A stretch of DNA of 3,437 bases from the NCBI RefSeq assembly GCF_003334815.1, contig NZ_QOWO01000082.1. The stretch is one strand, 5' to 3'. The notes beneath the pieces were generated by a model, which was given only the letters and a program-made list of their open reading frames with translations, ran no database searches and was not told the DNA's origin. How positions within the stretch are numbered: position 1 is the stretch's first letter; every line of letters starts with the position of its first letter. The DNA comes from Escherichia coli. GTDB lineage: Bacteria > Pseudomonadota > Gammaproteobacteria > Enterobacterales > Enterobacteriaceae. The position numbers and the translations under genes were made by a program. Shown in pieces: positions 1,441 through 3,428 of the stretch.

Positions 1441-1890
1441 ACGACTGCCGGGTCAGCCAGGTCATTTCCCGGAGGAGCGAAGCTCCTTCTGCCGTCCGGG
1501 TCTTAGGGTATTTCCCCGCAGTGGACCTTTCCGACGGGGGACGCTCACCACGTCACGGGGCAGTTGTCCGGGGGCAGACGCAAAAGTTTTTGACGCCTGC
1601 GGCAAAAAGTTTTGTGGCTGGTACATCTCTCCCCTGGACGACTGAAACGGGATGTGGTCGTGTATGTACCCCCGGAAAGTCCGTCTGCGGAGAACAGGCC
1701 GCAGTGCGGCGGCAGACAGGCAGAGACAGCTGCGCCATCAGGCGCAGTGGCCTTACACACCGTCAGGTGTGCAGGGAGCGCCGCATCCGGCGCGACTGGA
1801 GAAAACCGACGGCACAACAACGGCATGCGGTGGTCACTGGTACACCACTCCCGCACAGGTGAAAACAGAGAAAACAGCACGACATCCATA
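1441..1890. other. GC-rich, apparently non-coding spacer containing a series of short perfect GC-stem hairpins; candidate structured RNA or DNA element
   Basis: Hand counts give roughly 55-70% GC per 60-nt line versus ~50% in flanking genes. All three + frames and two - frames are open simultaneously (stop-codon depletion from GC richness, not coding). Hairpins: 1471-1489 (loop GAA), 1685-1704, 1730-1747 (7 bp, loop ATCA), 1756-1771 (6 bp, loop GTCA), 1778-1793 (6 bp, loop CATC). Confidence 0.4.
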
Positions 1891-1900
1891 ATCAAAAAAA

Positions 1901-1915
1901 GTGAAATTTCTTCAC
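1901..1915. promoter_or_regulatory. Operator-like palindrome GTGAA-N5-TTCAC (copy 1), upstream of the HTH gene promoter
   Basis: GTGAAatttcTTCAC followed by TTTTTCA. A second copy with the same half-sites and the same 3' flank is at 1968-1982. Confidence 0.4.
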
Positions 1916-1950
1916 TTTTTCACACTTATTTATCGCGCTGATTTGGTGAT

Positions 1951-1964
1951 TATGATGATAAAAT
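1951..1964 (+). promoter_or_regulatory. Putative -10 region of the HTH gene promoter (TATGAT 1951-1956 and/or TG-n-TAAAAT 1956-1964)
   Basis: AT-rich sequence with two overlapping -10-like hexamers ~35-45 nt upstream of ATG 2000. The 12-mer TGATGATAAAAT is identical to 106-117 upstream of the first gene, at almost the same distance from the start codon. Confidence 0.4.
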
Positions 1965-1967
1965 AAA

Positions 1968-1982
1968 GTGAAGTTTTTTCAC
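1968..1982. promoter_or_regulatory. Operator-like palindrome GTGAA-N5-TTCAC (copy 2), overlapping the predicted transcription start of the HTH gene
   Basis: GTGAAgttttTTCAC followed by TTTTTCA. The two copies are 67 bp apart centre to centre and bracket the -10 region, a classic autoregulation layout. Confidence 0.4.
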
Positions 1983-2549: not shown

Positions 2550-2699
2550 TCAGTGAATGACTTTTTTCAGTTCAGCTTCGGAAAGTCCGGTGGCCTGCTT
2601 AATCTGCTCAGGTGTCATCCCCATTTTCTGAAGCTGACGCGCAATGGCAAGGGCTTTTTCAAGCGCACCTTTCTGCTCAAGACGTTCTGCGATTGTCAT
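2550..2699 (-). CDS. Putative intragenic small protein (49 aa, RpnS-like) translated from an internal in-frame ATG of the Rpn gene
   Basis: Internal ATG at 2699..2697 in the rpn frame, preceded by GAGGAT (complement of 2706-2711) with 7-nt spacing. Product would be MTIAERLEQKGALEKALAIARQLQKMGMTPEQIKQATGLSEAELKKVIH. Consistent with reported intragenic antitoxins of Rpn nucleases (from memory). Confidence 0.45.
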   Translation of the reverse strand: MTIAERLEQKGALEKALAIARQLQKMGMTPEQIKQATGLSEAELKKVIH

Positions 2700-3428
2700 C
2701 AGTTTATCCTCATGCTGCGGCAGGCGCTCGGCCAGCGCCCGCATAAATTCCGGTGATACAGAGTCCCCTGCGTTAACGATGTAATGAATCAGAACACGCA
2801 CCTGCTCGTCTGAAATTTCCACCATGACCTGCGGGAGTTTGTCCAGCAGCTCCATCATGTCACGATGGCGGATATGCTTCATCAGCAGCGTCAGTGCGGC
2901 CATCCGGCGATGGTTCATGATTTCATTGTCATCAACGACAGTGATATCAACCAGCGGAAACGGCTTTGTGTATATTTTAGCCGCAAGTGACGGATTCTCA
3001 AAACAGTCCAGCCAGTTCATGCTGTACGGATACGGGCTGCGCTCACCATGATAGAACAGCACCGGAATCACCAGTGGCAACGTTTTGTGCTGCTCCAGAT
3101 GTCTCTGCATCGCCGCCACACTGTAACGTAACATGCGGAAAGGCATGTACAGATTTTCGGTGCTCTGGTGCTCGATGAGCGTATAAACATAGCCATCTTC
3201 ACCCCCGGTGGTTTTCACGCTCCAGAGGATATCGCTGGCGTACTGATGCAGGTCCGGCTCAACAAAGGTGGCGGGTTCCAGCTTCAGCGTGGACAGGTCG
3301 CACAACTGCCGGTACTCCGCCGGAAGATGCAGTTCCAGAAAATCTCTGGCGACGTCGGGATTCGCCAGGAACGACCGGAACGCGGCATCATGCGGCGTGG
3401 GCGTTGTGGTGTTTTTCTTCTTACTCAC
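2550..3428 (-). CDS. Rpn family recombination-promoting nuclease / YhgA-like putative transposase (PD-(D/E)xK nuclease), 292 aa
   Basis: N-terminus TPHDAAFRSFLANPDVARDFLELHLP and the core DILWSVKT...YVYTLIEHQS match the YhgA/Rpn family (Pfam Transposase_31-like) as I recall it. The C-terminal tail ...AERLEQKG...TGLSEAELKK is the typical Rpn tail. GTG start at 3428..3426 with GGAGG (complement of 3433-3437) 4 nt upstream. Gene is complete, but its promoter lies outside the window. Confidence 0.9.
   Translation of the reverse strand: MSKKKNTTTPTPHDAAFRSFLANPDVARDFLELHLPAEYRQLCDLSTLKLEPATFVEPDLHQYASDILWSVKTTGGEDGYVYTLIEHQSTENLYMPFRMLRYSVAAMQRHLEQHKTLPLVIPVLFYHGERSPYPYSMNWLDCFENPSLAAKIYTKPFPLVDITVVDDNEIMNHRRMAALTLLMKHIRHRDMMELLDKLPQVMVEISDEQVRVLIHYIVNAGDSVSPEFMRALAERLPQHEDKLMTIAERLEQKGALEKALAIARQLQKMGMTPEQIKQATGLSEAELKKVIH
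2706..2711 (-). promoter_or_regulatory. Internal Shine-Dalgarno (GAGGAT) inside the Rpn coding sequence, serving the internal ATG at 2699
   Basis: - strand reads GAGGATAAACTG-ATG; AGGA lies 7-8 nt upstream of the ATG, which is near-optimal spacing. Confidence 0.4.

Follow-up and report, generated by a model that had tools for sequence, protein, structure and literature searches.

The two palindromes upstream of the gene for an 83-aa XRE-type HTH protein are probably the operators of that protein, and its binding to the proximal site would place the gene under negative autoregulation. This reading is drawn from sequence comparison of the 3,437-nt window (the whole stretch of DNA analysed here) with related plasmids and genomes. 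The circuit type, an autoregulated XRE repressor, is routine, and the regulator itself is uncharacterised and widespread in leading regions. It now has a defined predicted operator, AAGTG-N9-CACTT, and a likely specificity residue at position 27, which leaves the circuit open to direct test and provides a natural set of orthogonal repressor/operator pairs. IncI1 plasmids and their relatives rank among the major carriers of ESBL and further resistance genes, and their leading regions, as the place where anti-defence genes are expressed early, are a subject of active research.

Position of the window in the IncI leading region

The window is found at 95-99.9% identity in more than 1,900 enterobacterial plasmids, nearly all of them conjugative with MOBP/MPF_I typing. 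It corresponds to positions 11031-14467 of the Salmonella plasmid NZ_CP039714.1 (IncI-gamma/K1, 98,012 bp), where it directly adjoins nikA/nikB and oriT and so represents the start of the IncI1 leading region. Its first gene (151-486, + strand) is of the yggA type and encodes 111 aa. It is followed by a DUF4942 gene (572-1423, - strand; Pfam DUF4942, E 7e-50), the first leading-region gene past oriT on the strand that can be transcribed from single-stranded DNA. A gap of 576 bp separates this gene from the divergent HTH gene (2000-2251, + strand), which is supported by its open reading frame and by annotation. Further on lie a 68-aa ORF (2282-2488, - strand) whose similarity to Rpn proteins is confined to their C-terminal part and a full-length Rpn nuclease gene (2550-3428, - strand; ORF and annotation). 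The classical leading genes, among them ardA, psiA, psiB and ssb, are all on the - strand, and only the HTH gene and yggA are on the + strand.

An element resembling the ssi/Frpo single-stranded-DNA promoters lies upstream of the DUF4942 gene at 1468-1799 (- strand); it belongs to a set of three repeats in the leading region, each about 330 nt long. The other two copies, at plasmid positions 15367-15695 and 21714-22042, are 80-82% identical to it. The three repeats correspond to ssi1-3, which are known as ssi/Frpo-type single-stranded-DNA promoters of IncI1 plasmids (PMC12672017). For the copy in the window the predicted fold is stronger on the + strand (-115 kcal/mol, z -6.8) than on the - strand (-96 kcal/mol, z -3.1), which fits the + strand being both the transferred strand and the template of the leftward leading genes. 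Since the sense strand of the HTH gene is this transferred strand, the gene could be transcribed in a new host only after synthesis of the complementary strand.

Two extended palindromes in front of the HTH gene

Direct reading and a pattern search located the GTGAA-N5-TTCAC palindromes where the initial annotation had seen them, as GTGAAATTTCTTCAC at 1901-1915 and GTGAAGTTTTTTCAC at 1968-1982, each followed by TTTTTCA and 67 bp apart from start to start. They are longer than had been described. With the A/T runs included they read AAAAAGTGAAATTTCTTCACTTTTT at 1896-1920 (arms of 10) and AAAGTGAAGTTTTTTCACTTT at 1965-1985 (arms of 8), each core being the centre of a repeat of about 25 bp, AAAGTGAAnnnnnTTCACTTTTTCA, and both lie within a 35-bp direct repeat of 86% identity (1888-1922 versus 1955-1989). 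In the 19-bp frame shared with relatives of the HTH gene, the predicted distal operator O1 is aaGTGAAatttcTTCACtt at 1899-1917 and the predicted proximal operator O2 is aaGTGAAgttttTTCACtt at 1966-1984.

Only 0.12 matches to the core with at most one mismatch are expected in the window, and three or more occurred in 0 of 200 shuffles, which also never produced the exact pair. The exact core has just one further copy on the whole 98,012-bp plasmid, inside coding sequence and without A/T flanks, and no further flanked copy of the palindrome was found anywhere on it. Based on the shuffle statistics, the extended repeat and this uniqueness on the plasmid, the palindrome pair is real, non-random and local. 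A motif search across the replicon had been suggested as a way to define a regulon, and this idea had to be given up: counts with one or two mismatches stayed at chance level over the whole 98 kb, the additional exact core is coding and unflanked, and no second target of the HTH protein was seen in the scan. Within the window, a third operator-like match, GTGAGcgtgaTTCAC (one mismatch), overlaps the stop codon of the HTH gene at 2248-2262. It has no A/T flanks, is lost in an 85%-identical relative and is probably a chance occurrence.

Promoter geometry and conservation among IncI variants

The -10-like sequences reported at 1951-1964 are present, and the best candidate among them is TAAAAT at 1959-1964, which together with a TG at 1956-1957 forms a probable extended -10 of the HTH promoter (TGaTAAAAT, 1956-1964, + strand). 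Positions 1956-1965 contain no variable position among IncI variants. If TAAAAT with its upstream TG is taken as the -10, transcription would start at about 1970-1972, within the left half of O2. A single nucleotide separates the -10 hexamer from the proximal operator, whose end is followed by 15 nt up to the ATG, and a Shine-Dalgarno-like AGGTG (1991-1995, + strand) is found 4 nt before the ATG. The initial annotation had placed one palindrome on the likely transcription start and the other on the likely -35 region. The first placement holds with the conserved -10, as O2 covers roughly -6 to +14. The second does not: the centre of O1 is near -62, which puts it some 20 bp upstream of where any -35 would be, and reading of the HTH promoter revealed no recognisable -35.

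A comparison of eight IncI variants showed that 1 of 38 operator positions is variable, compared with 23 of 102 positions in the flanking non-coding DNA (p 0.005). The variable position is one of the 19 in O1, and O2 and the -10 are invariant. Judged from these variants, the conservation of the operators indicates purifying selection. Two further promoters were considered and rejected. A leftward promoter sharing the operators has one consensus match only (- strand, -35 GTGAAA, -10 TATCAT), which is not conserved, as the final T of its -10 is missing in four of the eight IncI variants, and a second candidate before O1 (CATAAT, 1887-1892) is likewise not conserved among them.

The HTH protein

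The HTH gene is named ygeA, and its product YgeA, in some IncI1 records. In pESBL it is Hp21, which was scored as non-essential for maintenance and transfer in the laboratory. Counts of tblastn hits suggest that YgeA of plasmid F shares only the name and is no homologue. The 83-aa protein matches Pfam HTH_31 (E 1e-4, residues 3-40) and HTH_3 (E 0.022), and among 26 family members these two profiles are matched at E<=0.001 by 16 and 13 proteins, respectively; both Pfam families are generic HTH families only. The AlphaFold model (mean pLDDT 89.2) is all-helical, with helices at residues 3-12, 17-24, 28-35, 42-60 and 65-81. Its top Foldseek matches are all XRE-type regulators, with E-values that are weak (best 0.04) for a domain this small. 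The profile match and the fold of helix 2, turn and helix 3 in the model place the protein among the XRE-type HTH proteins.

The family comprises at least 545 protein clusters at 90% identity (E 1e-5 or better), and the names given to its members stop at 'XRE family regulator' or 'YgeA'. NCBIfam gave no family match for the protein, and its only match in PHROGs is phrog_6962, of unknown function. Literature searches with the half-sites, the accession, ygeA/yggA and leading-region XRE regulators yielded no description of either the protein or its operator.

The motif follows the HTH gene through divergent relatives

The HTH protein or its relatives were detected by tblastn in 3,696 of 72,556 plasmid records, of which about 2,000 are IncI-type with at least 80% identity and about 1,670 show less than 60% identity. 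For comparison, 39 loci were assembled from six divergent plasmid loci, 32 found by scanning 100,044 species genomes and one Pectobacterium plasmid, with HTH proteins 30-96% identical. Up to one mismatch to AAGTG-N9-CACTT was allowed for a site, and a locus was scored as positive when a site fell in the 160 bp preceding the HTH gene. By this definition 28 of the 39 loci carry the 19-bp frame in front of the HTH start, and the 160-bp upstream regions hold 44 sites compared with 7 in the other 129 kb, an enrichment of about 130-fold (Fisher p 1e-52). The remaining 11 relatives have no site in this frame; some of these genes are inside operons and some have other palindromes. The motif is kept amid unrelated neighbours, as on an IncFII plasmid, a phage-plasmid-like replicon and plasmids of Yersinia, Erwinia and Buttiauxella. 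As neighbouring genes vary widely among the loci, the HTH gene is the only constant partner of the motif.

The geometry of the proximal site is also retained. In most relatives it is centred 22-26 bp before the ATG, and a TAnnnT-type hexamer (TAAAAT, TAGAAT, CATAAT, TACAAT or TATAAT) abuts it. Distal and proximal sites are spaced 37, 45, 55-57, 64 or 67 bp apart, and just one operator is present in many relatives. Distances of 37, 57 and 67 bp had suggested a constant helical phasing of the operators, an idea undone by those of 45, 55, 56 and 64 bp. Given this variable spacing and the many one-site relatives, O1 would be dispensable for the basic circuit and bound to no fixed helical phase.

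Some loci deviate from the common arrangement. In Buttiauxella (L022-L024, L027) three tandem operator copies with 55-56 bp spacing lie upstream of the HTH gene, and the two distal copies have TGCCC as right half, not TGCAC. On a pOXA-48-like IncL/M plasmid (L007, 3001-3829) a 32%-identical homologue has neither promoter nor operator of its own and lies within an operon, where it overlaps a downstream gene annotated as restriction endonuclease, an arrangement that recalls C-protein/endonuclease operons. On a 318-kb Salmonella plasmid (NZ_CP149208.1, L047) a 1-nt deletion breaks the HTH reading frame and the gene is unannotated; both operators are intact.

Half-sites change together with the recognition helix

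Across the relatives, the outer GTG/CAC and the AA/TT flanks are nearly invariant, and the inner two bases of the half-site shift together with the recognition helix. Half-sites reading GTGCA, the version found in most relatives, accompany helices of the form [SC]L..[YW][KH].[YW]E, and GTGAC or GTGTC half-sites accompany ..YKRYE helices at four loci (L006, L034, L038, L040). The IncI helix TQRTWHAWE is the only one that goes with GTGAA half-sites. Over the N-terminal 58 residues the Pectobacterium protein shares 62% identity with that of the window, and its helix differs only by T26S, Q27L and A32D; both of its operators read GTGCA. A variant that is 85% identical and carries Q27L has mixed GTGAA/GTGTA half-sites. 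Taken from these pairings, it is plausible that residue 27, located where the recognition helix begins, determines the fourth base of the half-site.

Proposed circuit and alternative readings

In the proposed circuit, the HTH protein would bind O1 and O2, probably as a dimer. O2 abuts the -10 and covers the predicted start, so that a bound dimer would exclude RNA polymerase and keep it off the HTH promoter. Such negative autoregulation would hold the protein at a low, steady level. O1 would be a second site for the same protein that most likely strengthens or tunes repression, and it could have a separate role beside the neighbouring single-stranded-DNA promoter element. An operator of this kind is expected to overlap the core promoter of its own gene, as O2 does here and the proximal sites do in most relatives. 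The initial annotation had proposed that the adjacent HTH protein acts on its own gene through the palindromes, and this part is strongly supported by the way in which the motif follows the gene, by the co-variation of half-site and helix and by the conservation among IncI variants; the overlap of O1 with a -35, on which the arrangement was partly based, falls away. Binding, the dimeric state, the transcription start and repression over activation are what we infer from these patterns. Several points speak against simple autorepression. A regulator with itself as its only target on the plasmid has no obvious purpose, O1 at about -62 occupies a classical activator position, and five relatives have a distal site 845-1121 bp from the gene that a model of simple cooperative autorepression does not explain. 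In addition, the HTH gene is dispensable in pESBL and one natural plasmid carries a frameshifted copy.

Alternatively, the two sites could serve dual control as in C proteins, with O1 activating a weak promoter at low protein levels and O2 repressing it at higher levels, which would produce a delayed pulse once the plasmid is double-stranded. The location of O1 near -62, a class I activator position, would suit such a scheme, as would a promoter without -35, the presence of C.BclI and C.AhdI among the structural neighbours of the HTH protein and the overlap of the IncL/M homologue with an annotated restriction endonuclease gene. However, the distal site ranges among relatives from overlap with the -35 to about -62 (37-67 bp spacing) without keeping to one face of the helix, one-operator relatives are numerous, and C-boxes are adjacent within about 35 bp, unlike O1 and O2. 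We regard dual control as rather unlikely. Somewhat less probable still is that the distal site, or the pair, mainly forms a boundary or roadblock by the ssi element and a cargo slot that controls or insulates leftward transcription, with autoregulation being secondary. Such a function would account for the position of the operator/HTH module next to GC-rich, ssi-like repeated elements in many plasmids, for the three different toxin-antitoxin cassettes found between conserved distal and proximal sites in five relatives, and for the distal sites, whose conservation equals that of the proximal ones. Yet there is no conserved leftward sigma-70 promoter to act upon, as the one consensus match loses its -10 T in half of the eight IncI variants, and ssi promoters are already inactive in double-stranded DNA (PMC12672017).

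Perhaps the palindromes need no protein at all and act as RNA or DNA hairpins, that is, as weak bidirectional intrinsic terminators or attenuators composed of A-run, stem and T-run. Each site can indeed form a stem of 8-11 bp (-6.3 to -9.4 kcal/mol) with 5 consecutive U behind it on the + strand and 7 U on the - strand at O1, and the symmetric A and T flanks are kept family-wide. The stems are AU-rich, though, and a terminator scan made no call at O1 or O2; moreover, it is the base sequence of the half-sites and not mere pairing that is conserved over 30-96% protein identity, with a fixed spacer length and with half-sites that change in step with the recognition helix. O2 is also situated between the -10 and the ribosome-binding site, and since the predicted start is inside its left arm, its hairpin would not be fully transcribed, all of which makes this function very improbable. 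Binding of the sites by a host global regulator, CRP or another chromosomal factor, instead of the plasmid protein is hardly to be expected. The half-sites bear a superficial likeness to the GTGA...TCAC of CRP, but the spacing is GTGA-N7-TCAC and CRP needs N6 (TGTGA-N6-TCACA), and among plasmids that share enterobacterial hosts the sites read GTGCA, GTGAC or GTGAA according to the HTH variant encoded. The exclusion of CRP in the initial annotation, which was based on spacing, is borne out by this N7 and by the GTGCA sites of relatives in the same hosts, all within the family frame GTG-N9-CAC.

Relation to known autorepressors

Among solved structures, the best sequence match of the HTH protein is the HTH domain of Aca2 from phage ZF40 and relatives (PDB 7ezy, 7vjo, 7b5j), with a profile E of 4e-5 to 4e-4 over residues 1-67 (7ezy), and Aca2 is also the top Foldseek match at 30% identity. 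The two share the N-terminal pattern MT..EL...RK......AA.E.GVs.RsW..WE. and both occur on mobile elements in anti-defence contexts. As a dimeric autorepressor, Aca2 acts through two similar inverted repeats in its promoter/leader, one of them of high affinity (PMC6765145). The differences are nevertheless considerable. Aca2 has about 116-125 aa with a C-terminal alpha/beta dimerisation domain, whereas the HTH protein has 83 aa and is predicted to be all-helical without strands. The Aca2 repeats, TTCG-N6/8-CGAA, are close together, whereas the GTGAA-N5-TTCAC sites are 67 bp apart. Finally, aca2 follows an anti-CRISPR gene in an operon, and the HTH gene is monocistronic, with no supported co-directional ORF at 1424-2000 or past 2251. 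Lacking the C-terminal dimerisation domain and an acr operon, the protein lies outside the Aca2 family.

HipB, HigA and other XRE-type antitoxin autorepressors have the small HTH fold in common with the protein, are its next-best sequence and structure matches and repress their own promoters through several palindromic operators. In contrast to these systems there is no co-directional toxin gene here, and the Rpn neighbours are convergent and absent from most relatives; without a co-directional neighbour gene, assignment as a type II antitoxin was rejected. C proteins (C.AhdI, C.BclI, C.PvuII) are HTH dimers of about 80 aa that control their own promoter through two palindromes and appear among the structural neighbours. 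They have adjacent C-boxes within some 35 bp and a C gene that shares its transcript with the endonuclease; the window shows neither. With sites 67 bp apart from centre to centre and downstream Rpn genes on the opposite strand, the protein was not classed as a controller of a restriction-modification system. ArdK (IncN) and KorA (IncP) are small plasmid-encoded repressors of leading or establishment regions after entry. No sequence relationship of the HTH protein to either was found, and in the Pectobacterium locus an ArdK-family gene is annotated separately.

A recurrent leading-region arrangement

The order of oriT, yggA, one or more leading genes, a GC-rich repeated element, operators and HTH gene is seen again in plasmids of Enterobacter and Pectobacterium, where the HTH protein shares 48% and about 60% identity, respectively, with that of the window. 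Homology of the ssi element itself to these loci was looked for and is limited to close IncI relatives; the others have a different GC-rich repeat in the same place. In one HTH subfamily a conserved distal operator next to a GC hairpin precedes the gene by 845-1121 bp (L015 657-675, L020 656-674, L035 656-674, L036 380-398 and L030 531-549). Across these five relatives the interval from distal to proximal operator is occupied by toxin-antitoxin cassettes of three different kinds, as though the two sites bracketed a cargo slot.

Together with the recurrent gene order, these cassettes may leave room for a role beyond self-control. It is conceivable, though unlikely, that the HTH gene and its paired operators are a conserved leading-region module of MOBP/MPF_I plasmids that senses their arrival as double-stranded DNA. 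The module would be silent during the anti-defence burst from single-stranded DNA, and would be switched on after second-strand synthesis, since its gene, like yggA alone among its neighbours, is encoded on the transferred strand. The protein would then occupy sites on either side of the ssi element and of a cargo slot, filled by differing toxin-antitoxin cassettes in relatives, and could from there shut down or insulate the early genes. If this were true, it would amount to an Aca-like brake on plasmid establishment genes, possibly with host targets.

Additional features of the window

The RefSeq name of the gene at 151-486, 'molybdopterin-guanine dinucleotide biosynthesis protein MobC', looks wrong, as the gene is YggA of R64 and pESBL beside oriT. 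YggA of the window is homologous to Orf35 of pCTX-M3, and deletion of orf35 is reported to derepress nikA/nikB and increase mobilisation (PMC6112013). At the yggA stop codon, a perfect hairpin, GATGTGACATTGTCACATC (core GTGAC-N3-GTCAC, 485-503), was scored as terminator-like on the - strand by the terminator scan. Its half-sites resemble the GTGAC operator class; its spacing differs. The 68-aa ORF at 2282-2488, just downstream of the full-length Rpn gene, covers the C-terminal 50-60 residues of Rpn nucleases and has an annotated length of 171-282 bp across IncI variants. It contains three copies of a 12-bp tandem repeat, CCTTGTTTAAAA, at about 2409-2444, which encode GFK(E/Q) repeats.
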